In this document: in pieces, positions 1 through 13,155 of the stretch
How positions within the stretch are numbered: the first letter of the stretch is position 1
Layout: each line of letters opens with the position of its first letter
Source: a virus
Strand: one strand, 5' to 3'
DNA length: 64,000 bases
Virus record (IMG/VR): IMGVR_UViG_3300038427_000078
Notes under the pieces: generated by a model
What the model was told of the DNA's origin: nothing
Seen by the model: only the letters and a program-made list of their open reading frames with translations
The model's database searches: none
Program-made: the position numbers and the translations under genes

Positions 1-10
1 CATCGATGGC

Positions 11-451
11 ATGTACTGGCGTACATGTCCTGGGGGTCGAAAGTGGGTGACCGAGGGAGTTCGTCGTACGATGGGATGTGGATTCTACTCGCATGCTATC
101 GCAGAGGGCAAGAAGATTGTTCCTCCGAGAGAAGTCGAGGAGCAGGTCCAATGCCCCGGTCCTGGCTGTGATCGACCGGCTAAGACCGGAGGTCTTTGTC
201 CCGCCCACTACCAGCAGCAGAGGCAGGGCCGACCTTTGGCCCCCATCCGTGTGCATGACGGACTCGGGTACGACCGCTCTCGAAAAAGGAAGAGCCTCAA
301 GGAAAAAGAGAGGCGGCGCGTCGAGAAAGAGGAGCGCCAAGAACGTCCGAAGAAACCCAGGAAGAACGGGCGTCTAGTGGTCGTCGGGCGGGATGAGGAT
401 GGTCAGCCGATCACAATCCGAGAAGATTCGTCAGAGCATGCTACAATTTAG
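11..451 (+). CDS. hypothetical protein with Cys/His Zn-finger motif
   Basis: ORF with CPGPGC...LCPAHY motif and basic tail; true start may lie outside the window. Confidence 0.5.
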   Translation: MYWRTCPGGRKWVTEGVRRTMGCGFYSHAIAEGKKIVPPREVEEQVQCPGPGCDRPAKTGGLCPAHYQQQRQGRPLAPIRVHDGLGYDRSRKRKSLKEKERRRVEKEERQERPKKPRKNGRLVVVGRDEDGQPITIREDSSEHATI

Positions 452-655
452 TCATGACCCGTGCTAGAATAGATGAGATGGATCACTACACCGAACCCAT
501 TCTAGTCAAAGGAAACGCCAAGCAGGGCGGTTCCATCTGACCCTAGACGCATCCGCATAGGACGAGTCTAGGGGCTTCCGAGAGGAAGCCCTTGATGTTT
601 CCGGAGTAGTGTGGTAGGATCCAGAAGTACAGCAGCAAGACATAGAACAAAGCCT

Positions 656-730
656 CTCCTCGTAGCTCAGTCAGGACAGAGCAGCCGCCTTCTAAGCGGT
701 CGGTCGAGGGTTCGAATCCTTTCGGGGGGA
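656..730 (+). tRNA. tRNA-Arg(UCU)
   Basis: cloverleaf; anticodon arm gccgc-ct-TCT-aa-gcggt; T loop ttcgaat. Confidence 0.93.
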
Positions 731-961
731 CTTGACAGACGCAGATTCGTCTGCTACTCTGTCGAAACGGTAAGGTCCACCGTACATATCCAACGGACCG
801 GCTGGTCAGCCGTAACCATACGGCGAGTAGCTTGACGGACAGCGCCCAGGTGGGTGCGAGTCCAGCGCGAATAGCGGTTGAGCGATGTTGACACTTCTGC
901 CTCTCAGAGTAAGCAGCGGGTACAGAGTTCAGGGTTCGCGCCCGGAGCCAGCCAAATCTTC

Positions 962-1042
962 GCCAAGGTATGCAAGTGGACAAAGCACGCTGTCTGTAAA
1001 ACAGTTCTCTCGGGTTCGTAGGTTCGACTCCTACCCTTGGCA
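962..1042 (+). tRNA. tRNA-Tyr(GUA)
   Basis: acceptor gccaagg/ccttggc; loop ct-GTA-aa; long variable arm. Confidence 0.93.
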
Positions 1043-1109
1043 TAAAATCGAGTCCCCTCGCGGAAAATTTTTGCGGGGAATGCTCAGGCGAGATTAGCAT
1101 AATCTTCAC

Positions 1110-1132
1110 GCGCTGGTGATGGAACGGTAGAC
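1110..1132 (+). pseudogene. 5' fragment of a disrupted tRNA-Leu
   Basis: gcgctggtgatggaacggtagac = Leu-type acceptor 5' strand plus D arm; pairs with tcagcgc at 1790-1796. Confidence 0.7.
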
Positions 1133-1180
1133 TTGCTTTGTTTTCCATTCGCATCTGTGCTATAAGTAATAGAAGCATAC

Positions 1181-1265
1181 GTCCGCATGCTGGAACTCGG
1201 TAGACGGGCACGGTTGAGAGCCGTGTGGCCGAAAGGTCGTGTGGGTTCGACTCCCACTGTGGACA
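1181..1265 (+). tRNA. tRNA-Leu(GAG)
   Basis: acceptor gtccgca/tgtggac; cacgg-tt-GAG-ag-ccgtg; long variable arm with GAAA loop. Confidence 0.93.
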
Positions 1266-1267
1266 TC

Positions 1268-1750
1268 ATGGCATTTATCCATCGCTACACATTGGAGATG
1301 TTGGAAGAGGCAGCGGAGCACAGCACTTCGGTCGCTGGTGTCTGTCGTTATCTCAACATCAACAACCCTGGCGGTAGTTCGCAGACGAACATCCGCAATC
1401 GTCTTCGTGACTTCGGCATCGATACCTCACACTTCTTGGGTAAAGCTGCTCGCAAAGGAACACAAGCGAGCAATCGAAAGACGGCGGCAGAGATACTTGT
1501 ACGCCTTCCTTCTGGTGCCTACCGACCAGAAGCAAAGAAACTTCGACGGGCCTTGATCGAACAGGGACGAGAGTATGTCTGTGAGGGTTGCGGCAACAAA
1601 GCGTGGTGGAAAGAAGGCCCATTGACACTTGAAGTAGATCACATCGACGGCGATTGGCACAACAACGAAGAGGACAACCTTCGTTTCTTGTGTCCTAATT
1701 GTCATAGCGTTTACACGTTGCCCGGTGTACCATGTGGTACGGCGGACTAG
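1268..1750 (+). CDS. HNH homing endonuclease
   Basis: CEGC...LEVDHIDGDWHNNEEDNLRFLCPNCH. Confidence 0.9.
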   Translation: MAFIHRYTLEMLEEAAEHSTSVAGVCRYLNINNPGGSSQTNIRNRLRDFGIDTSHFLGKAARKGTQASNRKTAAEILVRLPSGAYRPEAKKLRRALIEQGREYVCEGCGNKAWWKEGPLTLEVDHIDGDWHNNEEDNLRFLCPNCHSVYTLPGVPCGTAD

Positions 1751-1797
1751 GACGTGGTGCCCTTCGGGGCGTGTGGGTTCGAATCCCACTCAGCGCA
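1747..1797 (+). pseudogene. 3' fragment of a disrupted tRNA-Leu(UAG)
   Basis: c-TAG-ga-cgtgg, variable arm gcccttcggggc, T arm gtggg-ttcgaat-cccac, acceptor 3' strand tcagcgc-a. Confidence 0.75.
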
Positions 1798-2070
1798 TAG
1801 GGCCGGTGGTCAGGCGACGGGGTAAGCTCCTGTCGAATGCAGCCGAGTAGGTCGGGGATCCAGGCGCGTCTGGTGAAAGACCCGTATCCCTCTTGAGGGG
1901 TGCCCATCTCAAGCACTTGGTTGCGGAGCGGTCAAGTGGGTAGAGGGCGGAAGCCAGCCTTGAAAGGTTGAGCCGAAAGCTCTAGCTCCAATGTTTCAAC
2001 TCCCGTGTAGTGGTGGAAGTCCACGTCGCGCAAGCGATTGTTACTGATGTGTGTCATGCACGGGAGCCAT

Positions 2071-2146
2071 GCCGCTGTGAAGGGAATTTGGCATACCTCT
2101 CACGCTTAGAACGTGAGGCTTGTGGGTTCGAGTCCCACTGGCGGCA
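2071..2146 (+). tRNA. tRNA-Leu(UAG), short variable loop
   Basis: gccgctg/tggcggc; tcacg-ct-TAG-aa-cgtga. Confidence 0.9.
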
Positions 2147-2164
2147 CTCAGTAGTGAAGTACCT

Positions 2165-2236
2165 GCCTCCGTATGGTTAGTGGTAGACCCTCCGACTTTT
2201 AATCGGGAAGCTGGGGTTCGATTCCCCACGGGGGTA
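2165..2236 (+). tRNA. tRNA-Lys(UUU)
   Basis: gcctccg/cgggggt; ccga-ct-TTT-aa-tcgg. Confidence 0.9.
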
Positions 2237-2387
2237 CTTTTGTGGTGATCGGCTGGGCTTGATCGGCCCGCTGTCCGATGGAAGGTGGTCGTGTGTCCAC
2301 TCTTCGACCCGCGTCAAGTAGGGCCACAACGAAGGGCAAGATACCTCCGTACCGCAGCGCGCCGGGACGATAGGTAACACACAACAT

Positions 2388-2460
2388 GGGCCTGTAGCTC
2401 AAATGGGAGAGCGCCTGCCTTGCAAGCAGGAGGTTGAGGGTTCGATTCCCTCTAGGTCCA
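2388..2460 (+). tRNA. tRNA-Ala(UGC)
   Basis: gggcctg/taggtcc with G3:U70; ct-TGC-aa. Confidence 0.95.
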
Positions 2461-2629
2461 CTGACTGTGGTGATCAGTCAAGCGGTAGCGGCCCCGGTAA
2501 AGGGTGCAGCCCGCACGAACTCACCACCGCCTCTGCGTTCACGGGCAGAGCAAATGGAAGTGTCGTGAGCTTCCCGTACAATTCTCTCTCCCCGATTTCA
2601 GTGCGTGGGATGGAGGGCGGTCGAATCAA

Positions 2630-2703
2630 CAGGGAGTAGCGCAGTCTGGTAGCGCACTTGGTTTGGAACCAAGGGGTCGCGGGTTCGAATCCCGCCTTCC
2701 TGA
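2630..2703 (+). tRNA. tRNA-Pro(UGG)
   Basis: cagggag/cttcctg; cttgg-tt-TGG-aa-ccaag. Confidence 0.95.
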
Positions 2704-2744
2704 TAGCAGAGGGACGGCTGCTTCGTAAACCGTCCCGCACTTAC

Positions 2745-2840
2745 GCGCCTGTAGCTCAGTGGTCAACGGTTCTCTTCGGGGAGCCAAAGAGTTGCCGCCT
2801 TTCAAGCGGTAGGTCCGGGGTTCGATTCCCCGTAGGCGCA
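2745..2840 (+). tRNA. tRNA with UUC (Glu) anticodon and an extra hairpin in the D loop
   Basis: gcgcctg/taggcgc; gccgc-ct-TTC-aa-gcggt; D loop contains ggttctc-TTCG-gggagcc. Confidence 0.8.
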
Positions 2841-2897
2841 TAACTCGTACCGCACCCCGGATTAGGGAGTACGAAGGCGGTGCAACGCCGCCACCAG

Positions 2898-2971
2898 CAG
2901 GGTATAGCGCAGTCTGGTAGCGCGCTCCCCTCGGACGGGAGAGGTCGTAGGTTCGAATCCTATTACCCTGA
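2898..2971 (+). tRNA. tRNA-Pro(CGG)
   Basis: cagggta/taccctg; ctccc-ct-CGG-ac-gggag. Confidence 0.95.
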
Positions 2972-3053
2972 TAGCGGCAGGCCATGGCCTGTCTCGAAGA
3001 TCCTCGGTTGAACCGTGAAGCCATAGTTACCACGGGCCGGTACGGATCGAGTT

Positions 3054-3126
3054 GCCGGTCTAGCTCTAATGGTAGAGCGCTTCCGTGGTAAGGAAGAGGT
3101 TCCGAGTTCGAATCTCGGGATCGGCT
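3054..3126 (+). tRNA. tRNA-Thr(GGU)
   Basis: gccggtc/gatcggc; cttcc-gt-GGT-aa-ggaag. Confidence 0.93.
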
Positions 3127-3388
3127 TAGCGGGGTAGACTCCATGCGCAGGGGTCGATGTCGAGGGAGTCATGACCCAAGGCACGCGGGTACCGACAGGC
3201 AAAGCGCCTGCTCGGTCCGTGCCGCACACTCATACCGTGCGCCGGGAAACCGCTAGACTGGCGGGTGTTACCGGATAAGGAGAGGCTAGTCACCGATCCG
3301 AAAAGGGATTGCTCGCACGGTTTTCTAGATTGATCGGTCGGCCTCCGGTAGAGGAGTAGCGGACGGGTCGCCCCTCCACGGAGGGCTT

Positions 3389-3460
3389 GCCAGCAAAGCG
3401 GAAGTGGTGCCGCACCCGTTTCGTAAGCGGGGGAATCGGGTTCAATTCCCGATGCTGGCT
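3389..3460 (+). tRNA. tRNA-Thr(CGU)
   Basis: gccagca/tgctggc; cccgt-tt-CGT-aa-gcggg. Confidence 0.88.
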
Positions 3461-3611
3461 TTGAGGCCGTGACCTCCGGGTAAGAAGCGCGGGGAGCGTC
3501 AGTCTTAGGTTGTCCAGGGTCTAAATTTGCGCCTGGCTGAGCAGCGGAGACTACATAACCGGCTCGCCTCACTTTCGTACTTTTCTTTCGGGTACGACAA
3601 GGTAATGTGTA

Positions 3612-4019
3612 ATGGTATGTGCTACCTGTAAAGAAGAGAAGGACTTGGACGAGTTCCATGCTGGTGCTCGCGTGTGTAAAGGCTGCAAGAAGGATGCCGA
3701 TGCTCGCTCGTTTCAGAAGCATCGGGAGGCTCGTCTAGAAAAGCGCCGACAGGATCGCCTCGCAGCACGCGAATGGTTTGAGTCCTTGAAGGCAGGAAAG
3801 AAGTGTGCCGACTGTGATCTGGATCATCCTCCGTGGAGGATGGATTGGGATCACCTTCCAGGCACAGAAAAGCTCTTTGAGATAGCCGATGTCAGCCACA
3901 TGGCAACGGGAGAGAAGGGCAAGCGGAAGATACTGGACGAGATTGCCAAGTGCGAGCTTGTCTGTGCCAACTGTCATCGAGACAGAACGCACGACCGCCG
4001 ACGGGGAGTGGCCCTGTAA
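3612..4019 (+). CDS. HNH homing endonuclease
   Basis: CxxC pairs; MDWDH...EIAKCELVCANCH. Confidence 0.88.
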   Translation: MVCATCKEEKDLDEFHAGARVCKGCKKDADARSFQKHREARLEKRRQDRLAAREWFESLKAGKKCADCDLDHPPWRMDWDHLPGTEKLFEIADVSHMATGEKGKRKILDEIAKCELVCANCHRDRTHDRRRGVAL

Positions 4020-4044
4020 CTCGGTTCGACTCCGAGTGTTGGCT
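4013..4044 (+). pseudogene. tRNA-Thr 3' remnant
   Basis: cc-TGT-aa followed by T arm ctcgg-ttcgact-ccgag and acceptor 3' strand tgttggc-t. Confidence 0.65.
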
Positions 4045-4089
4045 TCCATGGCAGACGAGGAGGCAAGCCCTCTCTTGACTCTGCCGCCA

Positions 4090-4162
4090 GGGGGATTGGT
4101 GTAAACGGCAATCATGATCGGCTCCAACCCGATTGATCAGGGTTCGAATCCTTGATCCCCCG
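4090..4162 (+). tRNA. tRNA-Trp(CCA)
   Basis: gggggat/atccccc; atcgg-ct-CCA-ac-ccgat. Confidence 0.9.
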
Positions 4163-4260
4163 CTGTAGCAGACGTGCTACCCGGCCAGGGGATCTACCTG
4201 GTGCAGGCCAATGCTGCCAGCCCACGCCAGTCGAAACGCTGTCCTGTGGCTGGCCTACCT

Positions 4261-4297
4261 GGTGTCTTAGCTCAGATGGTTAGAGCGCTGCCCTGTC
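4261..4297 (+). pseudogene. 5' half of tRNA-Asp(GUC), truncated right after the anticodon
   Basis: ggtgtct-ta-gctc-agatggtta-gagc-g-ctgcc-ct-GTC, then unrelated sequence. Confidence 0.8.
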
Positions 4298-4347
4298 TAG
4301 TAGACCACTGGCCTTCAAGGGCGGTGGTATCGGCTAGGTAATAGCTG

Positions 4348-4764
4348 ATGGCAACTACCAAGGACAAGGGCGACCTCGCTGAGCTACGCATCGCATCAGA
4401 CTTGATGCGGCAAGGATACAAGGTAGCTATTCCCTTCGGTGACAATTGGGACTTCGACCTGATCCTGTACCGCGATGGGTTCGAGAGGGTCCAGGTCAAG
4501 TACGCTCAGTCAGACGGTGAGAAGGTCGAGGTCAAGGCGGTAAGCTACTCGACCAACAAAGGTCTGACCATCTCAGCGAAACAGTACACCGCTGCTGAGA
4601 TTGACTGGCTTGCGGTGTACGATGTGACCACCGACGAATGCTTCTACGTGCCAGCTAGCGAGCTTGGCGACGGGATGAGGATGGTGACGCTCAGGTATAA
4701 GCCTGCGCGTAACAACCAGACCAAGGGCATCCGGTGGACGAAGGACTATGGGTCCGTAGCGTAG
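4348..4764 (+). CDS. PD-(D/E)XK homing endonuclease (family usually associated with tRNA group I introns)
   Basis: KGDLAE...GYKVAIPFGDNWDFDLI...RVQVK...IDWLAVY motif set. Confidence 0.88.
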   Translation: MATTKDKGDLAELRIASDLMRQGYKVAIPFGDNWDFDLILYRDGFERVQVKYAQSDGEKVEVKAVSYSTNKGLTISAKQYTAAEIDWLAVYDVTTDECFYVPASELGDGMRMVTLRYKPARNNQTKGIRWTKDYGSVA

Positions 4765-4823
4765 TGGTCTAACGCGCCTCCCTGTCAAGGAGGAGAACGG
4801 GGGTTCGAATCCCCTCGGTCCCG
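4750..4823 (+). tRNA. tRNA-Asp(GUC)
   Basis: gggtccg/cggtccc; cctcc-ct-GTC-aa-ggagg; overlaps the stop codon of the upstream ORF. Confidence 0.93.
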
Positions 4824-4845
4824 CTCAACAACGAAGCGGAGAATC

Positions 4846-4992
4846 ATGAAGCTCAGTAAGCTCAGTAAGCTAAGTCGTACATCCGAATTGCTCCCGTATC
4901 TTGAATCCGTTGAGCATTACGCCAACGCTGCCGTATACCACGGCACCTTCGAGGGCGAACAGTTCACGTTGACCTTTACCTTCGGCCCTTGA
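4846..4992 (+). CDS. small hypothetical protein (MKLSKLSKLSR...)
   Basis: ggaga RBS, 48 codons, 9-nt tandem repeat aagctcagt. Confidence 0.45.
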   Translation: MKLSKLSKLSRTSELLPYLESVEHYANAAVYHGTFEGEQFTLTFTFGP

Positions 4993-5000
4993 CTCGTCGC

Positions 5001-5029
5001 TTGACTTCTAGTCGTGGACCGTGTAGACT
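5001..5029 (+). promoter_or_regulatory. sigma70/SigA-type promoter, leaderless transcript
   Basis: TTGACT-N17-TAGACT with ATG 7 nt downstream. Confidence 0.75.
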
Positions 5030-5036
5030 ACGGTCC

Positions 5037-5504
5037 ATGAACCTACTAAAGACACTTCCTGTCGTGCTGCTCGTAGCCCTTGCTGGATGCGGAGCAGTTA
5101 CCAAAGCACCTGCCAAAGCACCTGCCCCGCACCCTAGTCTCCCCAAGGTGGTCAAGGTCACGGCGCAACCGACCACGACGACACCGGAACCCAGGCCCAG
5201 GCCCAAGCCTAGACCTGCGGTGGTAGTTCCTGTGCCTACTCCTACGCCTACATACCCGACATGCGATGGCGGACCCGTTGAATGCGGGAAGGCATCGGCA
5301 GCACCGACACGGGAAGAAAGTCTGCAACAGCACTACCGCGAAACCGGAGGCTGCGGTGGGGAAGGAGAGGCTGAATGTCCCGCCCACGGAGAAGGCAGCG
5401 GAGAAAATAGCGTCAACAGCACGGGTGAATCGCGTGCCTGTGCAGAAGAACGTAGTGAATACACAAGTGGCGAGAGGTCTAGTCTCCGCGTTGGCTGTCG
5501 ATAA
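5037..5504 (+). CDS. lipoprotein with Pro/Thr-rich stalk
   Basis: MNLLKTLPVVLLVALAG-C lipobox. Confidence 0.75.
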   Translation: MNLLKTLPVVLLVALAGCGAVTKAPAKAPAPHPSLPKVVKVTAQPTTTTPEPRPRPKPRPAVVVPVPTPTPTYPTCDGGPVECGKASAAPTREESLQQHYRETGGCGGEGEAECPAHGEGSGENSVNSTGESRACAEERSEYTSGERSSLRVGCR

Positions 5505-5544
5505 GTCAAGGCGGAGGTCGCGGGTTCGAGTCCCGTCGTTGTCG
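5505..5544 (+). pseudogene. 3' half of a tRNA-Asp(GUC)
   Basis: GTC-aa-ggcgg-aggtc-gcggg-ttcgagt-cccgt-cgttgtc-g. Confidence 0.75.
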
Positions 5545-5557
5545 CTCGCAGTACAAC

Positions 5558-5629
5558 GCGCTGGTAGCTCATTGGCAGAGCAATCGGTTTACACCCGATG
5601 TGTATGGGGTTCGATTCCCTGGTGGCGCA
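5558..5629 (+). tRNA. tRNA-Val(UAC)
   Basis: atcgg-tt-TAC-ac-ccgat; one acceptor mismatch. Confidence 0.88.
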
Positions 5630-5676
5630 TAGATGTCAAGTAGCTCTGTAGGCGCAGGGGGGTGCGACATCTTTGA

Positions 5677-5749
5677 GGGCGATTAGCTCAGTTGGGAGAG
5701 CGCCGTCGCGACATGGCGGAAGTCACTGGTTCGAGTCCAGTATTGCCCA
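5677..5749 (+). tRNA. tRNA-Val(GAC)
   Basis: gggcgat/attgccc; ccgtc-gc-GAC-at-ggcgg. Confidence 0.88.
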
Positions 5750-5938
5750 CTCTCCTGTCACCTAATTGGTGGCAGGGAATGCAAACCCACGACCAGCGTA
5801 AGAAAGGATGGTGATCCAGAAATCTACCTTGTAGACAGATGGTCGCCGTCCACAGTTGGTCGGCACTAAGTCGTTGGGGGAGGGTGAGGGCCGCTGGCTC
5901 TTAGCCCTCCCTCCGAGGTTCTTCGGAGCCTCACCCAT

Positions 5939-6335
5939 GGGCCTTTCCCGGTAATCGATTGGGTAGGTTCGGCAGTATGTCATGCAGCGGTCGTCACACC
6001 TACCTGACAAAAGCCATAACTGGCAACGCAACAGACACGCTCGCAATCCCCGCATCTCTCTTCGAGGTTCGGGCTAGCGACGTACTCGCTGTAGCCTAAG
6101 AAGCTACAAGCCGGGACCAGCCGAGTATCCTGGGAACAGAAACCTCGGAGGGCAGTGAGCGCCATGCCCTTGACGTGCAGAGTACCGTTGTAGTTACACC
6201 GCAAGGTGTTGGTAGCACCCCGCGCGTTCCCGGACGTATAACCGGGTGGTGGAGGCGGGCCATGCCTGTCCCAAAGCTGCTAGAAGTGACGCCTGTACGA
6301 GACTCAAGACGGCAGTTCGACTCTGCCAAGGTCCA
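5939..6335 (+). ncRNA. ssrA: tmRNA
   Basis: acceptor gggcctt/aaggtcc-a with G3:U; T arm ggcag-ttcgact-ctgcc; ATAACT-GGC resume context; tag ORF 6022-6099 GNATDTLAIPASLFEVRASDVLAVA*. Confidence 0.92.
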
Positions 6336-6369
6336 CTAAAACAAGGTCCATCCGTGCTAGAATAGATGG

Positions 6370-6807
6370 ATGGGCAGAGAGCAAAGACGAGCAAAGCAAT
6401 TGGGTATGCCGCATGGCACAGCCATGCACCGCTTGCGTAAACGAGTGATGTTTTCACTAGCTCAGGAGTTGCACTTGGATCAGTGCATCGTGTGTAAGAG
6501 GATGATCGAAGATGCTGACGACCTTAGCATCGAGCACATCCAGCCGTGGGAGGGCCGAGACACGTCCCTGTTTTGGGACATCACTAACATCGCTTTCTCT
6601 CATCGCTGGTGCAACCAACCTCATACGCGACCGGGCAAGCCTCCGGTTCATGACCTCAAGCCCGACATGTGGTGGTGCTCCCACTGCGAACAAGAACTTC
6701 CGCTTGATCGATTCGGCCTCAAGACAGTGACAAGTGGAGCTAAACGACCACGAAACTACTGCAACAAATGCCGTACCGAACGTAAAGCAATGGGCCTCTC
6801 GGCCTAG
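6370..6807 (+). CDS. HNH homing endonuclease
   Basis: CIVC...SIEHIQPW...NIAFSHRWCN plus C-terminal Zn ribbon. Confidence 0.82.
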   Translation: MGREQRRAKQLGMPHGTAMHRLRKRVMFSLAQELHLDQCIVCKRMIEDADDLSIEHIQPWEGRDTSLFWDITNIAFSHRWCNQPHTRPGKPPVHDLKPDMWWCSHCEQELPLDRFGLKTVTSGAKRPRNYCNKCRTERKAMGLSA

Positions 6808-6812
6808 TCCAC

Positions 6813-6841
6813 TTGACAAGCCGGAGAAGACGTGCTAAGCT
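6813..6841 (+). promoter_or_regulatory. SigA-type promoter
   Basis: TTGACA-N17-TAAGCT, ATG at 6848. Confidence 0.7.
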
Positions 6842-6974
6842 CCCGGCATGGAACAAGACAAAAACGGAAACCTGATCTGCAACGTCTGTGGACAGGATTG
6901 GGCAAGCCAACACACCATCGGGGCAACTGCCTCCAACCTCCCAGGAAGCCAAGTCAACCAAAGGAAGGCAAGTG

Positions 6975-7277
6975 ATGGGCTACTACATCGAGACACCCCT
7001 CCCGCTCGCGAAGGCACTTCAACTCGAAGAGCTTCACGGTGCGGAGCCGTACTCGGGTACGTTCGAGGACGTACCGGAGGGCAAGGTCGTAGTCGCAGTG
7101 GTACAGAACGGTCTGTTCGACGCCGCTGGCATCTGCTACGACGAGAACGAGTTCAAGGCATTCACCGCTGACCCAAGCGACACCAGGCCGAAAGACCTGT
7201 TGACGCTGGACAAGGACACCGCCCTACGGCTGTGCCCGCACGCAGCGGAGGTACTTGGAGAGGACGTGGCTACCTGA
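6975..7277 (+). CDS. hypothetical protein
   Basis: RBS aaggaagg; GC3-biased codons. Confidence 0.7.
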   Translation: MGYYIETPLPLAKALQLEELHGAEPYSGTFEDVPEGKVVVAVVQNGLFDAAGICYDENEFKAFTADPSDTRPKDLLTLDKDTALRLCPHAAEVLGEDVAT

Positions 7278-7483
7278 TGCCCGTCCTTTTCTTCATCATC
7301 GCAGGCATCATCCTGATCGCCAACTCGGGCTGGTTCCACGGAGCAGACATCGTTGGCATCGTCCTGCTCGTCTTTGGCGGGCTTGGACTTGTCCTCTGGC
7401 TCGTCGCTGCGAAATTCGCACGGAGCATCATCAAAGAGGTCAAAGGACCAGGGACACCCCGGCATCCCCGGAGGTTCCGCTAA
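7277..7483 (+). CDS. small two-TM membrane protein
   Basis: two hydrophobic stretches and basic tail; TGATG coupling. Confidence 0.7.
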   Translation: MPVLFFIIAGIILIANSGWFHGADIVGIVLLVFGGLGLVLWLVAAKFARSIIKEVKGPGTPRHPRRFR

Positions 7484-7490
7484 GTTGTTC

Positions 7491-7563
7491 GCCCTTGTAG
7501 CTCAGAGGATAGAGCATCGGTTTCCTAAACCGTGTGTCGCGGGTTCGATTCCCTCCGGTGCCA
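7491..7563 (+). tRNA. tRNA-Arg(CCU), degenerate acceptor and T stems (possibly pseudo)
   Basis: cggt-tt-CCT-aa-accg; acceptor gcccttg/cggtgcc has 2 mismatches. Confidence 0.6.
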
Positions 7564-7579
7564 TGGTATACTGTTGGGT

Positions 7580-7921
7580 ATGAGTGATCAAGACCTAACA
7601 GAGCAGCAAGTAGTGGCTGCGGAGGCCGGTGTCGGAGACAGCATACAGGCCATCGCGGACCGCGCAGTCAAGGCCGTCGAGGTACTGGACTTGAGCGAGG
7701 GCGATGTTCTCGTAGTCAAGCTCGGCATCGATGACATGGGTGACGGACTCCCACCGTGGATTCCGGGACCAGCGGAGCTAGAGCAGGTGTCAGATGCCTT
7801 GACCGCGACAGTGCCAGAGGGCGTACGGGTGCTAGTTCACCACCTGGGAATCAACTTCCAGATCGTACGCGGCCTCGACACCAGTAACCCGGTCGTAGTC
7901 GAATCGCTGCCAACAGAGTAA
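7580..7921 (+). CDS. small protein paralogous to an internal portal-protein domain
   Basis: KLGIDDMGDGLPPWIPGPAELE...RVLVHHLG matches portal KLGIMDMGDGLPPWLPGPEELE...RVMVHHFG. Confidence 0.85.
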   Translation: MSDQDLTEQQVVAAEAGVGDSIQAIADRAVKAVEVLDLSEGDVLVVKLGIDDMGDGLPPWIPGPAELEQVSDALTATVPEGVRVLVHHLGINFQIVRGLDTSNPVVVESLPTE

Positions 7922-7924
7922 CAC

Positions 7925-7999
7925 GCGGGAATAGCTCAGCCAGGTTAGAGCACTTCTCTGATAAGGAAGGGGTCAGAGGTTCAAATCCTCTTTTCCGCA
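7925..7999 (+). tRNA. tRNA-Ile(GAU)
   Basis: gcgggaa/tttccgc; ct-GAT-aa. Confidence 0.93.
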
Positions 8000-8084
8000 T
8001 CGCAGGAAAATCGGTCCTGAAAAATTAGGGTCGGCGCTCAGAAAAATTTTGCGCCAACTTCTCAGGCGAGATTAGCCTAATTAC

Positions 8085-8159
8085 GCCCAAGTGACGGGAA
8101 TTGGCATACCTGGCAAGCTCAAACCTTGTCGTTTGTGGGTTCGACTCCCACTTTGGGCA
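8085..8159 (+). tRNA. tRNA-Leu(CAA), short variable loop
   Basis: gcccaag/tttgggc; gcaag-ct-CAA-ac-cttgt. Confidence 0.9.
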
Positions 8160-8191
8160 CTTTTTGTCGAACCTTCTGACACGTAATATAC

Positions 8192-8524
8192 GTGGCATAC
8201 AAGGATCCTCAGAAGCAGAAAGAAGCACAGCATCGGTCATATCTGCGTAACAAAGAGATAATCCTCAGGCGCAGTTCTGATCGCATCAAAGAGCTTCGAC
8301 GCAAAGTGCGAGAGTACAAGGAGGAGCGTGGTTGTAGCGCGTGCGGGTACAACAAATACGGTGGGGCTATCGATGCTCATCACCCAAACGGCAAGGATAA
8401 CCAAGAACAGTGCATTGCCCGTTTGTGCAAACGGGCCTTTCCGTGGGAGACAATCCTTGCGGAGCTTGAGAAGTGCATTCTTCTCTGTTCCAACTGTCAT
8501 CGCGAGCACCATCGCGGTGAGTAG
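8192..8524 (+). CDS. HNH homing endonuclease
   Basis: CSACGY...IDAHH...ELEKCILLCSNCH. Confidence 0.88.
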   Translation: MAYKDPQKQKEAQHRSYLRNKEIILRRSSDRIKELRRKVREYKEERGCSACGYNKYGGAIDAHHPNGKDNQEQCIARLCKRAFPWETILAELEKCILLCSNCHREHHRGE

Positions 8525-8546
8525 CATAACGCGCTATACTGGAAAT

Positions 8547-8723
8547 ATGGGACCAGACAAATGTGGCGCAGAAGTCGGACTTTTGGCAAGATGCCAAAGA
8601 CCGGCGAATCACGACGGAGAGCACTCAGGGCCGATTTTCGTCCCTCAGTGGATTACCTATTTGGGCGAGGGTGACGAGATTCCTCGCAGTCAGTACCAAT
8701 CGTGCGGAGTGGAGCAACGGTAG
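8547..8723 (+). CDS. small hypothetical protein; stop codon lies inside tRNA-fMet
   Basis: TATACT 6 nt before ATG (leaderless); C..C..H..H motif. Confidence 0.55.
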   Translation: MGPDKCGAEVGLLARCQRPANHDGEHSGPIFVPQWITYLGEGDEIPRSQYQSCGVEQR

Positions 8724-8774
8724 CTCGCAAGGCCCATAACCTTGAGGTAGGAAGTTCGACTCTTCCCTCCGCTA
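8703..8774 (+). tRNA. tRNA-Met(CAU), initiator-like
   Basis: unpaired 1:72 (T:T); tggagc D stem; caagg-cc-CAT-aa-ccttg. Confidence 0.85.
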
Positions 8775-8786
8775 TAGCAGTACAAT

Positions 8787-8858
8787 TCCGGGTTCGTCTA
8801 ATCGGCAGGATGTCTGGTTCTGAGCCAGATGGTCAGGGTTCGAATCCTTGACCCGGAG
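8787..8858 (+). tRNA. tRNA-Gln(CUG)
   Basis: tccgggt/acccgga; tctgg-tt-CTG-ag-ccaga. Confidence 0.92.
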
Positions 8859-8920
8859 CTTTGGCAGTAGAAGGCGAACAGCGCTTAGAGCGGGTTCGTG
8901 GGATCCCGCGCTGTCAACAT

Positions 8921-8991
8921 TGGGGGTTCGTTCAACGGCAGGACAGCGGGCCTTGAACCCGCGAATCGGGGTTCGAATCCCTGACCCCCAG
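8921..8991 (+). tRNA. tRNA-Gln(UUG)
   Basis: tgggggt/accccca; gcggg-cc-TTG-aa-cccgc. Confidence 0.92.
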
Positions 8992-9073
8992 CTAGCAAGG
9001 CAAGGAGCCGGTAGGCGTGTGCTACCGGACCAGAACGAGGCGTCACTGCACGCCTACCTTGCCGCAATCTTTC

Positions 9074-9157
9074 GCCTCTCTGGTTGGAATGGTAGACACA
9101 GCGGGCCTAAACCCCGCCGATCTTCGGATCGTCCGAGTTCGACTCTCGGGAGAGGCA
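9074..9157 (+). tRNA. tRNA-Leu(UAA)
   Basis: gcctctc/gagaggc; gcggg-cc-TAA-ac-cccgc; long variable arm. Confidence 0.9.
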
Positions 9158-9159
9158 TC

Positions 9160-9234
9160 GCGTCGGAAGCTCAAGTGCGAGCGCCGCCCATTTGGGGGCG
9201 GAGGTCGAGGGCGATTAGCTCCCCTCTCGGCGCA
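9160..9234 (+). ncRNA. tRNA-like cloverleaf with non-canonical loops
   Basis: gcgtcgg/tcggcgc, gctc/gagc, ccgcc/ggcgg, gaggg/ccctc stems; no TTCGA loop; 8-nt anticodon loop. Confidence 0.6.
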
Positions 9235-9238
9235 ACAT

Positions 9239-9312
9239 GGTGGTCGTCATCTAATGGACTAGGATTCGAGGTTGTGAACCTCGCCATGCGGGTTCGATTC
9301 CCGTCGATCACC
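9239..9312 (+). tRNA. tRNA-His(GUG) with encoded G-1
   Basis: g-gtggtcg/cgatcac-c; cgagg-tt-GTG-aa-cctcg. Confidence 0.92.
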
Positions 9313-9324
9313 CTGGCAGCACAA

Positions 9325-9399
9325 GCGCCACTAGCTCAGTCTGGTTAGAGCAACTGTCTTATCAACAGCGTGTCCGGGGTTCAAATCCTCGGTGGCGCA
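9325..9399 (+). tRNA. tRNA with UAU anticodon (Ile AUA reader)
   Basis: gcgccac/gtggcgc; ctgt-ct-TAT-ca-acag. Confidence 0.8.
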
Positions 9400-9405
9400 C
9401 TTCAT

Positions 9406-9479
9406 GGCCCGTGGGTCTTATGGCAAGGATTCCGCGTTCTCAGCGCGTGAGATGATGGGTTCGAATCCCATACGGGCTA
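9406..9479 (+). tRNA. tRNA-Glu(CUC)
   Basis: ggcccgt/acgggct; cgcg-tt-CTC-ag-cgcg. Confidence 0.88.
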
Positions 9480-9554
9480 CTCTGTAGGTACCATTCGAAT
9501 GGCTCTGCCTGCGGAACGCTTGACTTCATCGCACCCGTGCGATATGATGTCGCT

Positions 9555-10208
9555 ATGTCGAGAGCAAGAGACTGGACCCACCCAATCACCGGCGAGCTAC
9601 ACTGGTTCGACGTACACGGCATGGCTGGGGTCCGGGAACTCGAAGTTCTCGCAGACGCCGAAGACATCGACTTGGACGACCTGTTCGACGCGAACCTCTC
9701 TTCTAAGGAGGTTCTGTTCCGGCTCAACAAGCTCAGTGAGCTAATCCCGGAGGCGGGCCTCAACAAGCTCAAGAAACGTCAGACACAGGGCGAGCCTGAG
9801 ACTTGCCGCATCTGCCCGCTACTCGGTCGGGAGTGCGAAGGTCGAATGACCAAACATCACTTCGTGCCGCGTTGGATCATGTTGGAACTGGCAGACTACG
9901 AGGTCTATGCACCGCGTAGGCTCTGCACAGTCCCGGCGTGCGCCGGGAGCCACCGTTGGCTCCACATGCGGACCGAGGAGGGATCGAAATCCATCGCTCC
10001 TTACCTCGACAAGAATGAGAAGGCACTAGCGCACCATCTCATCGGGACACTCCGTCAGGAGCGCCCCAGGATCTACGCCCTCCTCGCGGGCGGGGACAAG
10101 AACAGCTACGAGTGGCAACTTGTTCAGGATTGGCGGCGAGGACTGTTTGATGTCAGGGGGGAAGGGAAAGATCCCTTCCCTCGCTGGCAGCTACGAAACT
10201 CTCTGTAG
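9555..10208 (+). CDS. HNH-like protein
   Basis: CRIC...TKHHFVPR...VPACAGSH; upstream TTGACT-N17-TATGAT promoter; stop codon inside tRNA-Arg. Confidence 0.65.
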   Translation: MSRARDWTHPITGELHWFDVHGMAGVRELEVLADAEDIDLDDLFDANLSSKEVLFRLNKLSELIPEAGLNKLKKRQTQGEPETCRICPLLGRECEGRMTKHHFVPRWIMLELADYEVYAPRRLCTVPACAGSHRWLHMRTEEGSKSIAPYLDKNEKALAHHLIGTLRQERPRIYALLAGGDKNSYEWQLVQDWRRGLFDVRGEGKDPFPRWQLRNSL

Positions 10209-10271
10209 CTCAGTGGATAGAGCGTCCGGTTGCGATCCGGGAGGTCGGCGGTTCGAGTCCGTCCAGGGAGG
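10199..10271 (+). tRNA. tRNA-Arg(GCG)
   Basis: ctctctg/cagggag; tccgg-tt-GCG-at-ccggg. Confidence 0.9.
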
Positions 10272-10299
10272 TACGTTAGAACCCTGCTAAGGTGTAGAT

Positions 10300-10479
10300 A
10301 TGCCTTACGCAGATAGAGAGAAACAGGCGGCGTATCAACGCGATTGGTACCGACGCCACAAAGAGCAACATATCAACCGTATTCGTAACGAACGTCGTAA
10401 GAGGCGTGAAGTGGTCAACGAATACAAGCTCTCAAGAGGGTGTAACCGATCGCGGGTTCGATTCCCGCATAGTGCTTAG
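10300..10479 (+). pseudogene. truncated HNH gene fused to an orphan tRNA T arm
   Basis: MPYADREKQAAYQRDWY...EYKLSRGC resembles the N-terminus of 8192-8524, then gcggg-ttcgatt-cccgc. Confidence 0.7.
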
Positions 10480-10486
10480 ATCAAAC

Positions 10487-11073
10487 TTCGTATCAGGCGG
10501 TTGCTGCGCTTGAAAGACAGCGTAGAGGAAGTTCGGGGCATGCTGGCAGGGGAAACCTTGTCATCGGCTCAACTACACCGAGTGACACCGGCCCAAAGGA
10601 GGTACGCCCTCGTTGGTGTTCCGGCGCATGCAACTCCAAGTAGAGAACCCTACGGCGAAAGCTATGGGCATATCGGGTTGGAGGCTTAGATGGATGATCG
10701 CCACCAGTTACGACTCAGAGGAGAGACATGAACTACTGTGAAGCGATGGCCTACGTCGCGGGGCTGTTGGAGGGCGAGGGATGCTTCGATTTCGTAGCTC
10801 CCGGCCATCCAAGGATCCGCATGGAGACAACAGATGAAGATGTGGCATACTGGCTTCAACACTTGGTTGAAGGTGGGACAATCACTAATCGTCAGGGCAA
10901 ACGCAGTAATCACAGCGATTCGTTTGTGTGGCAAACGAGCAGGGCTGATGTGGTCAAGAAGGTCTTGACGGCAATCTATCCTTGGACAAGTGCTCGCAGG
11001 CGAGTAAAGATTGATGAACTCATGTCTGCTCTCTGAGCCGTAGTTGGTACAGAACCCCGGCTATCGATACGAA
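10487..11073 (+). ncRNA. rnpB: RNase P RNA (reduced S-domain, no P18) with an ORF inserted in P19
   Basis: P1 ttcgtatc/gatacgaa; P2 ggcggtt/gatcgcc; P3; GAGGAAGTTCGGGGC at 10525; TAGATGGATG; ACAGAACCCCGGCTA at 11049; P4 forms 8 bp with a bulged U. Confidence 0.88.
10728..11036 (+). CDS. single-motif LAGLIDADG homing endonuclease inside the RNase P RNA
   Basis: YVAGLLEGEGCF motif; RBS gaggag. Confidence 0.9.
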   Translation: MNYCEAMAYVAGLLEGEGCFDFVAPGHPRIRMETTDEDVAYWLQHLVEGGTITNRQGKRSNHSDSFVWQTSRADVVKKVLTAIYPWTSARRRVKIDELMSAL

Positions 11074-11114
11074 TATGCCCCTCGGCTCTGTTCAGAACGG
11101 CTTGGGGGCACCAA

Positions 11115-11188
11115 GCCTGTGATGCAGAAATGGTGCTGCGCTCGCCTTGTAAGCGAGAATAGACTCGGTTCGATTCCGAGCATAGGCT
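11115..11188 (+). tRNA. tRNA-Thr(UGU)
   Basis: gcctgtg/cataggc; ctcgc-ct-TGT-aa-gcgag. Confidence 0.88.
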
Positions 11189-11352
11189 CTGACTGCGCTC
11201 TTGCAAGCACCGGGAACCGGCGTGCGGCAGAGCGGCGCGCTGGTCACCCGTGGCTAGTCCTCATTTGCTCAACGCACCCCGGATTAGGGATTGGGCAGGC
11301 TAGTCTAGTGTGAGTACCCACTGATCGCGATGAGCGTGAGGGGAAATCCAAT

Positions 11353-11423
11353 GCGGATGTGGCGTAATGGTAACGTATTTGCCTTCCAAGCAAAGGTTGC
11401 GGGTTCGACTCCCGTCTTCCGCT
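11353..11423 (+). tRNA. tRNA-Gly(UCC)
   Basis: gcggatg/cttccgc; tttgc-ct-TCC-aa-gcaaa. Confidence 0.93.
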
Positions 11424-11489
11424 TCAACCCACGACACAAAGGAGGTACCCCATGCGGTTAGGCACTGTCTAATCGAAAGGAGGTACTAA

Positions 11490-11660
11490 GTGAACGGCAA
11501 CCTCGCAGCCAAGGCTGCGAAGCTCATGCAGAAGAACGGGAACCGCGACAAAGGAGGCGGATCCCACAAGTACGGACGCAACCGCAACAAGTGCGCCCGC
11601 TACCGCGCCCGCGTGGGGAAGCCCCGTGGTCCTGGTGTCGATGGAAACAAGAAACACTAG
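11490..11660 (+). CDS. small very basic protein (56 aa)
   Basis: strong RBS gaaaggaggt plus GTG; MNGNLAAKAAKLMQKNGNRDKGGGSHKYGRNRNKCARYRARVGKPRGPGVDGNKKH. Confidence 0.7.
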   Translation: MNGNLAAKAAKLMQKNGNRDKGGGSHKYGRNRNKCARYRARVGKPRGPGVDGNKKH

Positions 11661-11697
11661 AGGGTGGCCGACCGGCCCACTGGAACGGTCGGATTAG

Positions 11698-11768
11698 TGC
11701 TGTGTAGCTCAACGGTAGAGCAACTGGCTCATAACCAGAAGACGGCGGTTCGACCCCGCTCGCAGCGA
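11698..11768 (+). tRNA. tRNA-Met(CAU)
   Basis: tgctgtg/cgcagcg; ctgg-ct-CAT-aa-ccag. Confidence 0.88.
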
Positions 11769-11818
11769 CTCATAACTCACAGGCTCCTTTCGAGCCATTT
11801 CCGGGCGCATAATGCTTG

Positions 11819-12163
11819 ATGGCATACAAGAACAAGGTCGATCAAGCAGCCTCTTCTCGTCGTCATTACCTTCGTAACCAGAAGGCGATGAAGGAGAGGG
11901 CTGAACTCAAGAACCGCGAACGTCATGCAGAATACGCGGAGAAGATCAAGGTTGCGAAGGCTAGACCTTGCGCCGATTGCAACATCGAATACCCTCACTA
12001 CGTCATGGACTTCGATCATGTGCGTGGCAAGAAGGTCGGGAACGTATCGACCATGGCTCATGCCTTGCGACCTTGGAAGCTGATCGAACAAGAGATTGCG
12101 AAGTGCGATGTCGTCTGTTCTAATTGTCATCGAGAGCGTACGTATGTTCGACTCTCCGCATAG
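11819..12163 (+). CDS. HNH homing endonuclease
   Basis: CADC...MDFDHVRG...EIAKCDVVCSNCH. Confidence 0.88.
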   Translation: MAYKNKVDQAASSRRHYLRNQKAMKERAELKNRERHAEYAEKIKVAKARPCADCNIEYPHYVMDFDHVRGKKVGNVSTMAHALRPWKLIEQEIAKCDVVCSNCHRERTYVRLSA

Positions 12164-12390
12164 CGATTTCATCATCCGGGCGCGAAACCTGCTATCATCG
12201 GTAGAGTAATGGTTGGAGACAGACACATGGACAACGGTGGCTATCAATGCTCGACTTCATCTTCCGATACCTGTGTCGGCGCTTCGGCCATCGCTGGATT
12301 GCCGAGGAAACCTACGCTGGCGAGTGGTGGGACATCTGCGCCCGCTGCCACGCTGTGCGCAAACACCAACCGGGGAGAAATTGAAGGTCC

Positions 12391-13155
12391 ATGAGCGAGA
12401 CAGACGCACAGAAGATCGCGCAGTTGAAGCATCTCATCGATGAGACACACAAACACGGTGAGAGGATCCAGGTCGAAATCCAGAAACTACAGGCGGCACA
12501 CGCCTCTCATGTTCAGATCGACATCAAGAAGGGTCTGTTGAAGGGGCTAGAGCTTCTGAACGCACACCGTCGTAGGGAACTAGAGGAGCTTGAACATCCG
12601 GCTCCGAAACCTGCACCTGAGCCTCCGAAACCTGCTCCGAAACCGAAACCAGCGCCGAAACCCAAGCCGAAACCGAAGCCGAAGCCACCGGCTCCGCAGC
12701 GGTTCCACATGCTCGACTCCACGAACGCCGACAGTCTCCCGGAGGAGGGAGAGGCAGCGGTCGCCGGTTACGTCAACGGGATCTTCAACGACTTCGACAA
12801 CATCGTCAAGCGCTTCCCGCACCTGAAACACCTGTCGATCAGCGTGTTCTCTGGCGAGGACGCCGACGCTCTCGACGTAGAGAACGGGGACGCGACACCG
12901 GGCGAGGCACCAGGCTGGGTACGCAAACAGCACGCACGCGGAAAGGCCCGCCCTGTGGTCTACGCCAATGCGAGCACGATGCCCCAGGTTGTGCAAGCCT
13001 TGACAGACGACGGCATCAAGAGGGACGAATATCTCCTATGGGTGGCCGACTATGACGGGAAGGCCGACATCCCGGAGGGCTTCGATGCCAAGCAGTACGA
13101 AGACCACAATGAAGAGTACGACATCTCGATCTGTGAGCCTTGGTTCTTGGACTGA
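12391..13155 (+). CDS. endolysin-like glycoside hydrolase (GH25-like C-terminal domain, Pro/Lys linker)
   Basis: LDVE..DA, PVVY, LWVADY, AKQY motifs; adjacent holin-like gene. Confidence 0.65.
   Translation: MSETDAQKIAQLKHLIDETHKHGERIQVEIQKLQAAHASHVQIDIKKGLLKGLELLNAHRRRELEELEHPAPKPAPEPPKPAPKPKPAPKPKPKPKPKPPAPQRFHMLDSTNADSLPEEGEAAVAGYVNGIFNDFDNIVKRFPHLKHLSISVFSGEDADALDVENGDATPGEAPGWVRKQHARGKARPVVYANASTMPQVVQALTDDGIKRDEYLLWVADYDGKADIPEGFDAKQYEDHNEEYDISICEPWFLD

Follow-up and report, generated by a model that had tools for sequence, protein, structure and literature searches.

Why should a transfer RNA (tRNA) gene for leucine lie in two pieces around a second, complete tRNA-Leu gene and a nuclease gene? 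The question is raised by a stretch of soil-phage DNA of 64,000 nucleotides (IMG/VR record IMGVR_UViG_3300038427_000078; hereafter the window), in which ARAGORN detected an array of the phage type, with 28 tRNA genes and one transfer-messenger RNA (tmRNA) gene. At one place in this array, the ends of an old class II tRNA-Leu gene (the remnants) enclose a spacer, an intact tRNA-Leu(GAG) (the passenger) and an intact gene for an HNH nuclease, which together are called the cassette. Our results make it quite likely that the cassette is a free-standing HNH homing-endonuclease gene that moves as a unit with tRNA-Leu(GAG) and is seated in the anticodon loop of a resident tRNA-Leu, between nucleotides (nt) 33 and 34. 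The element probably spreads by cutting the tRNA-Leu gene and supplying a substitute for it.

A tRNA-Leu gene in two pieces

An earlier annotation made from the letters of the window (the original prediction) had taken the two outer pieces for the ends of one tRNA-Leu gene with complementary acceptor strands. This proved right, as the acceptor strands of the outer pieces pair at 7 of 7 positions and the same halves flank the cassette in five further lineages; the variable-arm and T stems of the 3' piece are also intact. The limits of the pieces had to be adjusted: the Leu-type 5' end stands but reaches 1142 rather than 1132, and the 3' half stands but starts at 1748. The 5' remnant consists of the acceptor 5' strand (1110-1116), a Leu-type D arm (1117-1134) with one mismatch (nt 11-24), and a decayed anticodon-stem 5' strand (1136-1140) followed by U32-U33, with which the piece ends. 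The 3' remnant begins with TAG (1748-1750; nt 34-36) and continues with the anticodon-stem 3' strand (1753-1757), a long variable arm (1758-1772), the T arm (1773-1789), and the acceptor 3' strand (1790-1796), with A73 at 1797. The insert of ~610 nt is made up of the spacer, the passenger, and the nuclease open reading frame (ORF), and nothing in it is left unassigned. The passenger has A73, its CCA is not encoded, and its Rfam tRNA score is 39.9 bits against a threshold of 29. The ATG of the nuclease gene lies 2 nt 3' of the passenger, and its TAG stop occupies the old anticodon position. Both the intact tRNA-Leu(GAG) and the HNH ORF ending in this TAG had been read from the letters, and ARAGORN, Rfam, Pfam, and PHROG agree with that reading.

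Table 1. Features of the split tRNA-Leu locus in the window.
Feature	Position	Strand	Basis or remark
Conserved upstream block	1064..1109	+	Putative resident promoter of the old tRNA-Leu; would now drive the cassette too
5' remnant, old class II tRNA-Leu nt 1-33	1110..1142	+	Direct reading and alignment with relatives
Cassette spacer, 38 nt, with extended -10-like tract (1156-1166)	1143..1180	+	Homologous to the L083 spacer
Passenger tRNA-Leu(GAG), class II, 85 nt, intact	1181..1265	+	ARAGORN; Rfam
HNH nuclease gene, 160 amino acids, intact	1268..1750	+	Pfam, PHROG, homologues, AlphaFold
3' remnant, old tRNA-Leu nt 34-73	1748..1797	+	Direct reading, alignment, and pairing

Relatives were gathered through close homologues of the nuclease and a scan for the 5' strand. 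Six lineages have an occupied locus: the window (L001), L002, L003 (equivalent to L007, L045, and L048), L050 (equivalent to L047 and L051), L049, and L083. The order of parts is identical in the five lineages besides the window, all of them uncultured phages, whose nucleases are 76-78% (L002), 72-74% (L003), 71% (L083), 68-71% (L050), and 65% (L049) identical to that of the window. The locus stands in a syntenic array after tRNA-Arg(UCU) and tRNA-Tyr in all occupied lineages but L083, the sequence of which is too short to show this, and an RNA ligase gene is found just upstream of the array in the relatives. Both halves are kept and could be aligned in the occupied lineages, as the original prediction required of its relatives. 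Judged from sequence, the split layout is beyond chance, since the halves recur in five more lineages with acceptor strands that differ and yet stay complementary.

The insert varies in length from ~610 to 1010 nt among the lineages and includes differing extra ORFs. L002 has an extra ORF of 120 codons and no known family (5952-6314) between the nuclease gene and the 3' remnant, and the stop of this ORF is the TAG at the old anticodon position, as for the window nuclease. At 3100-3310 of L003, the 5' remnant harbours an ORF of 62 codons, also of no known family, between two imperfect copies of the D-arm end; the gene had been broken before, and the ORF is a second, later insertion. The spacer of L050 has shrunk to ~14 nt, without the -10-like tract. 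The passenger tRNAs of the different lineages differ in the sequence of their acceptor and T stems, which still pair. The passenger and the remnants are 66-71% identical, and simple duplication was rejected as the origin of the arrangement on account of this low value.

An empty site was found in L006 (equivalent to L046), which at the same array place has tRNA-Arg, tRNA-Tyr, an uninterrupted tRNA-Leu(GAG) of 83 nt, tRNA-Leu(UAG), and tRNA-Ala. This intact tRNA-Leu is 89-96% identical to the 5' remnants in four lineages and 76-100% identical to the 3' remnants from nt 44, but only 64-67% identical to the passenger tRNAs; by these identities, it is the counterpart of the remnants and not of the passenger. 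The 5' remnant of the window agrees with it at 25 of 28 positions (nt 1-28), and the 3' remnant at 41 of 50, the top value among the four intact tRNA-Leu genes compared. The original prediction had looked to relatives for an uninterrupted tRNA-Leu(UAG) at this place. The uninterrupted gene is there, in L006/L046, but its anticodon reads GAG and not UAG.

Searches of larger collections were also made. In the INPHARED phage collection, no close relative of the window was found, and the matches were tRNA-sized only. For the upstream RNA ligase, IMG/VR yielded 29 related loci, none with a syntenic array and all at too great a distance, and the nuclease search in IMG/VR returned an L003-type contig and distant matches only. 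A metagenome pattern scan for the promoter block together with the 5' strand gave four records, all of them copies of known lineages or of L046.

Nuclease family and probable mobility of the cassette

The nuclease ORF matches Pfam PF01844 (HNH; E 4.5e-6) and PHROG 10822 (E 2.3e-43). Residues C105, C108, H125, N137, C142, C145, and H146 are invariant in 32 sequences; H125, N137, and H146 are catalytic, and the four cysteines are zinc-binding. In the AlphaFold model, which is a confident one (predicted local distance difference test, pLDDT, 87.8), three helices form the N-terminal domain, and the C-terminal part is a beta-beta-alpha-metal motif that contains two CxxC pairs. Foldseek against the PDB gave weak HNH-domain matches only (McrA, I-HmuI) and no assignment for the N-terminal domain. 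The protein therefore has the nuclease class and the intact catalytic residues of a homing endonuclease. Its gene lies in neither a self-splicing intron nor an intein.

The nuclease has 2504 homologues, and the named ones belong mostly to Kitasatospora, Streptomyces, and other actinobacteria. One source's automatic name for a cellular homologue of the window protein is 'F-TflIV'. A cellular sample of 301 genomes, from the class of one homologue-bearing genome, gave 28 matches in 22 genomes at a cut-off of E up to 1e-15. All 28 lie directly upstream of a tRNA-Leu gene on the same strand, with the anticodon UAG in 26 cases and UAA in 2; one of them is in an unpublished genome (G016), without which the count is 27 of 27. 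Given the size of the gene and genomes of 3-10 megabases, this adjacency cannot be due to chance. By this association, the nuclease family is tied to tRNA-Leu DNA, an actinobacterial host is suggested for the phage, and the same family appears to use tRNA-Leu genes as landing sites in bacteria too. As a separate observation, six of the sampled genomes have two tandem, diverged nuclease copies upstream of one tRNA-Leu(UAG) (L066/L081, L067/L080, L069/L079, L070/L077, L071/L078, and L074/L082).

The relationships of the cassette differ from those of the DNA around it. In the backbone, taken as the segment from tRNA-Arg to tRNA-Tyr, L003 and L006 are 94% identical and L002 and L006 91%, while the window, L050, and L049 are 75-81% identical to these. 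The passenger tRNAs pair the lineages otherwise, with identities of 94% for L003/L050 and 93% for window/L049, and the HNH proteins are most similar in L003/L050 (78.5%), with 75.7% for window/L002. The 3' remnant of L003 is identical to L006 at 40 of 40 positions from nt 44, but its nt 35-43 are window-like and not L006-like. As a mosaic of L006-like and window-like sequence, this remnant matches what would be left by the copying of a cassette, with a short co-conversion tract, into a live allele. Thus, the target site is empty in a close relative (L006/L046, with a backbone 94% identical to that of the occupied L003), and signs of co-conversion and of an element history that differs from that of the host are seen, in a small sample consisting of the identity matrices of seven lineages. 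The disagreement between cassette and backbone similarities and the mosaic remnants fit homing with co-conversion. Intron-less homing with a passenger tRNA, as put forward in the original prediction, is upheld by this discord and by the empty site, together with the place of the family beside tRNA-Leu and the missing intron core described below.

The alternative that survives best is a frozen accident, in which one illegitimate recombination or segmental duplication was followed by vertical inheritance and the HNH protein has another role or none. The left-junction spacer, which is homologous between the window and L083 and partly so in L002, L003, and L050, does point to one founding event, but the empty L006 falls inside the backbone group of the occupied L002 and L003, and cassette and backbone similarities disagree. 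Similarly, the nucleotide divergence of the HNH genes (61-73%) is about that of the backbone (73% in the RNA ligase region, L003 vs L006), as vertical descent would have it, whereas donor-like and L006-like stretches are mixed in the L003 remnants. A precedent exists in the phage nuclease SegB, which drives the amplification of a tRNA-plus-nuclease unit by way of microhomology (PMC13096335); however, every lineage has an undamaged nuclease whose catalytic residues do not vary, and its family stands beside tRNA-Leu at 28 of 28 cellular loci. On balance, we consider a frozen accident improbable.

Fate of the old tRNA-Leu gene

An anticodon-arm defect is present in every occupied lineage, each of another kind. 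In the window, three bases of the 5' stem strand are substituted, whereas L083 has lost 3 nt from the 3' strand of the stem. L003 has a 2-nt deletion at the anticodon in addition to the small ORF inserted in its left piece. U33 is lost in L002, and the spacer has suffered a deletion in L050. In L049, ~nt 35-39 are missing, so that the left piece extends to nt 34 and the right piece begins near nt 39. The sequence CCACG of the L083 left piece, followed by TT, is the exact complement of the right-hand CGTGG of the window. Because of this complementarity, the founding insertion appears to have been clean, at nt 33/34, in an arm that once paired perfectly. These defects, the missing intron core described below, and the lack of any conserved splice junction indicate that the old tRNA-Leu gene is dead, broken and not spliced.

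The original prediction had seen no group I intron core, and this was confirmed: Rfam intron and ribozyme families gave no match in window 1-12500, even at E up to 1, the insert has no room for a core, and in the five lineages to which ARAGORN was applied in intron mode, it called the passenger alone and never a tRNA-Leu across the insert. Immediately ahead of the 3' piece, the base varies among the lineages (C, G, A, A or C), and the HNH frame extends up to that base. The locus thus has neither the ribozyme core nor the terminal G of a group I intron, nor exons that restore a tRNA. Complementary leader and trailer and complete halves, as in split tRNAs of the archaeal type, are also lacking, stem bases having been lost or mutated; in the 40 nt beside both junctions, the duplex energy of leader-trailer pairing was no better than that of shuffles (z -0.84 to +1.98). 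Scoring of virtual joins of the halves by ARAGORN was too permissive for counting, since a tRNA of one kind or another was called for 176 of 400 joins, and only calls restricted to tRNA-Leu were used. With this restriction, no join was called in L003 or L049, and in the window the join of 33 nt with TAG and what follows was callable as tRNA-Leu.

These results bear on the idea that the halves still make a working tRNA, either because the 610-nt insert is removed as a new intron or because the halves are joined or held together, for example by RNase P (ribonuclease P) and RNA ligase of the phage itself. The acceptor strands are complementary in all six lineages and covary, with double changes: at pair 5-68, the window has T-A where L083 has A-T, and the stem of L049 is wholly different. 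Such covariation is, however, equally expected if the remnant pairs were live until recent homing. The variable-arm and T stems keep pairing and the ancestral insertion looks clean, but the anticodon arm is defective in each lineage in a different way, the last base before the 3' piece varies, and the HNH frame reaches it. The one tRNA-Leu join callable in the window stands against none in L003 or L049, and the empty results of ARAGORN intron mode and of the Rfam intron and ribozyme families stand against removal of the insert, as does its range from ~610 to 1010 nt with differing extra ORFs. The remnants are far better conserved than the flanks, and the RNA ligase gene upstream of the array in the relatives would be at hand; yet the junction-adjacent sequences are not complementary (z -0.8 to +2.0). 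A working tRNA from these halves is therefore highly improbable.

It is hardly to be expected either that the remnants are kept as RNA, with acceptor strands and D and T arms closing a tRNA-like handle around the passenger and the nuclease message. If they were, the handle would direct processing by RNase P and the CCA enzyme of the phage, or the phage RNA ligase would rejoin the halves; rejoined halves would be a counterpart of archaeal split tRNAs in a bacterial virus, or a new type of intron. An assembly chimera of halves and cassette can be dismissed, although the data consist of metagenomic contigs throughout and assemblers can be misled by repeats such as tRNA genes: because an independent contig of 1701 bases, assembled from another sample, matches window 487-2187 with 100% identity across the whole structure, the structure is not an assembly artefact, and the L003 type recurs in four records and the L050 type in three (99.96-100% identity where compared), with the same part order in six diverged lineages.

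The anticodon of the old gene affects how the passenger is to be understood. The remnant reads TAG in four lineages (window, L002, L050, and L083), the left pieces of the window and L083 have another T after U33, and the cellular relatives lie beside UAG genes, all of which favours an old UAG, as originally predicted. Against this, the only intact allele at the site, that of L006, reads GAG, and the left piece of L049 ends in TTG. The old anticodon may have been UAG or GAG. If the old gene was GAG, the passenger would be an exact functional replacement. If it was UAG, the passenger would restore a tRNA-Leu but not the same codon reading, which a short tRNA(UAG) at window 2071-2147 may cover.

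This next tRNA, nominally a tRNA-Leu(UAG), is class-I-like, with 77 nt, a variable loop of 4 nt, and A73, and it scores only 31.5 bits in Rfam. The short type also occurs in L050 (3233-3307) and L049 (6312-6385), and a normal class II gene of 85 nt is found in L002, L003, and L006. Many of the actinobacterial nuclease homologues also adjoin short tRNA(UAG) genes, of 74-79 nt.

Several points weigh against homing with a passenger tRNA. With one empty and six occupied lineages, the incongruence between cassette and backbone is read from small identity matrices and not from a tested tree. The intact allele of L006 differs in its anticodon stem and reads GAG where the remnants read TAG; it may resist the nuclease and not be its natural target. 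For an old UAG gene, the GAG passenger would not be a like-for-like substitute. Finally, the conservation of the remnants (78-93%) is about that of the passenger tRNA (78-94%), whereas the flanks are unalignable (~50%). This conservation and the acceptor covariation would be explained by repeated homing into live alleles, without any function of the remnants, and each remnant pair would then have been a working gene until its own invasion; selection on the remnants may nevertheless play a part in their conservation.

Possible mechanism, known systems, and neighbouring loci

If the cassette moves by homing, the nuclease would cut or nick an intact allele in or near the anticodon loop during mixed infection, and the cassette-bearing genome would be the template for repair of the break. 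Homology arms would be provided by both remnants together with the flanking sequence outside them, and a few junction-proximal bases would be co-converted. The passenger tRNA would escape cutting by virtue of an anticodon stem and loop flanks unlike those of the target, and by keeping a tRNA-Leu in the array it would make the cost to the phage low (cut and rescue). The junctions of L049 differ from the others and yet share the anticodon loop with them, which hints at, but does not prove, a break in that loop.

The unit would be transcribed from the upstream block of the old tRNA and, in some lineages, perhaps from the internal -10-like tract. The upstream block contains a -10-like hexamer (1098-1103), 6 nt ahead of nt 1 of the old tRNA, and aligns among the occupied loci of the window, L002, L003, and L050; the empty L006 shares it, whereas L049 does not. 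A simple sigma-70 scan of window 400-2400 found no promoter, either in this block or in the tract at 1156-1166, and the extended -10 motif shows no enrichment, with 20 matches in the window against 17.8 expected. The tract is also present in the L083 spacer, where its version is closer to the motif that follows tRNA-Arg in relatives, and is absent from L050, in which the upstream block would be the only candidate promoter. The internal tract may be functional. However, the idea that a promoter-like tract is a constant part of the cassette had to be given up, as it is missing in L050, does not exceed chance, and was not detected by the sigma-70 scan.

The ATG of the nuclease gene overlaps the discriminator base of the passenger in L002, L003, L049, and L050, and follows it by 1-2 nt in L083 and the window. 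Because the ATG is at the passenger 3' end, any ribosome-binding sequence would lie inside the tRNA acceptor strand, and because it abuts that end, a given transcript would serve either tRNA 3' maturation or nuclease translation, but not both. Competition between the two on each transcript could keep the nuclease at a low level. Similarly, restraint of expression by abutting tRNA processing has been proposed for segB and the nucleases of the T5 tRNA cluster (PMC2330249).

The closest comparison is with SegB of phages T4/T6, a free-standing GIY-YIG homing endonuclease in a tRNA cluster, which recognises the tRNA T-psi-C motif and carries neighbouring tRNA genes along by co-conversion (PMC2330249). 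It can also amplify the tRNA-plus-nuclease unit, which behaves as a block (PMC13096335). Like segB, the window gene encodes a nuclease, has no intron, sits in a phage tRNA cluster with a tRNA directly next to its reading frame, and has its proposed target in tRNA-gene DNA. Unlike SegB, the window protein belongs to the HNH and not to the GIY-YIG family. In addition, segB sits between tRNA genes without a broken target while the window nuclease gene sits inside one, and SegB recognition centres on the T-psi-C motif while the window-type junctions point to the anticodon loop. HNH nucleases inside a phage tRNA cluster, like that of the window, were reported in a 2004 study cited in PMC2330249, and the citing text mentions no split or passenger tRNA.

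The mobE gene of Aeromonas phage Aeh1 is a free-standing HNH gene that split nrdA into two genes (PMC3045599). Like the window nuclease gene, it lies inside a host gene without an intron or intein and leaves two pieces; however, the pieces of the split protein reassemble and work, whereas those of the window look dead and a complete substitute is carried. Group I introns with homing endonuclease genes occur in the anticodon loops of bacterial and phage tRNAs, such as that of the cyanobacterial tRNA-Leu(UAA) (PMC3984707). The window insert is similar in lying in the anticodon loop of a tRNA-Leu with a homing endonuclease gene, but it has no ribozyme core or room for one, its terminal base is not conserved, and its exons form no anticodon stem. 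Nanoarchaeum and other archaea have split and permuted tRNA genes, in which the leader of one half is complementary to the trailer of the other and the archaeal splicing endonuclease, with a ligase, makes the join. The window halves resemble these in their complementary acceptor strands and in being broken near the anticodon, but they lack junction complementarity and their anticodon stem is defective.

A full-text search of the literature returned no description of a nuclease inside its target tRNA gene with a spare tRNA. Judged from the arrangement of its parts, this variant of intron-less homing is new in that the nuclease gene sits within its target RNA gene and a complete spare copy takes the place of an intron. 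Homing endonuclease genes normally spare their host by hiding in a self-splicing intron or intein or by sitting beside the target. The window element appears to use a third way, in which it lands in an RNA gene, destroys that gene, and carries a substitute that presumably cannot be cut. This logic is that of engineered cut-and-rescue gene drives, and it would provide a mechanism for the swapping and shuffling of tRNA alleles in the large tRNA arrays of soil phages.

Similar layouts were seen elsewhere in these arrays. A second cassette is present in the array of L049 (5810-6385), where a class II tRNA-Leu(UAG) is present as nt 1-38 only and gives way to a second HNH ORF (5874-6347). The TAG stop of this ORF is the anticodon of an intact short tRNA(UAG) that overlaps the ORF end, and the spare tRNA is thus downstream of the nuclease, as in the bacterial loci. 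In L050 (1629-2170), a tRNA-Tyr is followed by an HNH-like ORF of 120 codons (1798-2160), which runs into a second Tyr-type T arm and acceptor strand, and the same cut-and-replace layout appears to exist at this neighbouring gene.

The array region of the window contains at least five more ORFs of homing-type nucleases, and a gene for a CCA-adding enzyme is located farther downstream. At 3612-4046, an HNH ORF (PHROG 2255, E 6e-25) terminates at 4019, directly before an orphan T arm and acceptor strand that no tRNA call covers; here too, a nuclease gene seems to sit on what is left of a tRNA gene, probably one for tRNA-Thr. A 5' half of tRNA-Asp ending in GTC (4262-4297) precedes an ORF (4348-4764) that overlaps an intact tRNA-Asp (4750-4824), and further ORFs follow. 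An orphan piece that starts with GTC and has a T arm is found at ~5505-5545, but the acceptor strands of the outer pieces of this Asp locus (4262-5545) do not pair. Another orphan T arm and 3' strand outside the called tRNAs (10430-10476) lie before an ORF (10728-11036) of PHROG 5046, annotated as an HNH endonuclease.

Two further features do not involve a nuclease ORF. The tRNA at 2745-2840 is 96 nt long with a hairpin of ~22 nt in the D loop; it scores 57.5 bits in Rfam and has TTC (Glu) in the anticodon loop, and ARAGORN cannot name it. Between tRNA-Arg(UCU) and tRNA-Tyr, ~230 nt (732-961) contain no ORF. The whole Arg-to-Tyr segment around this stretch is 75-94% conserved across all relatives and has an extended -10-like motif ahead of it; the stretch is a candidate small RNA.

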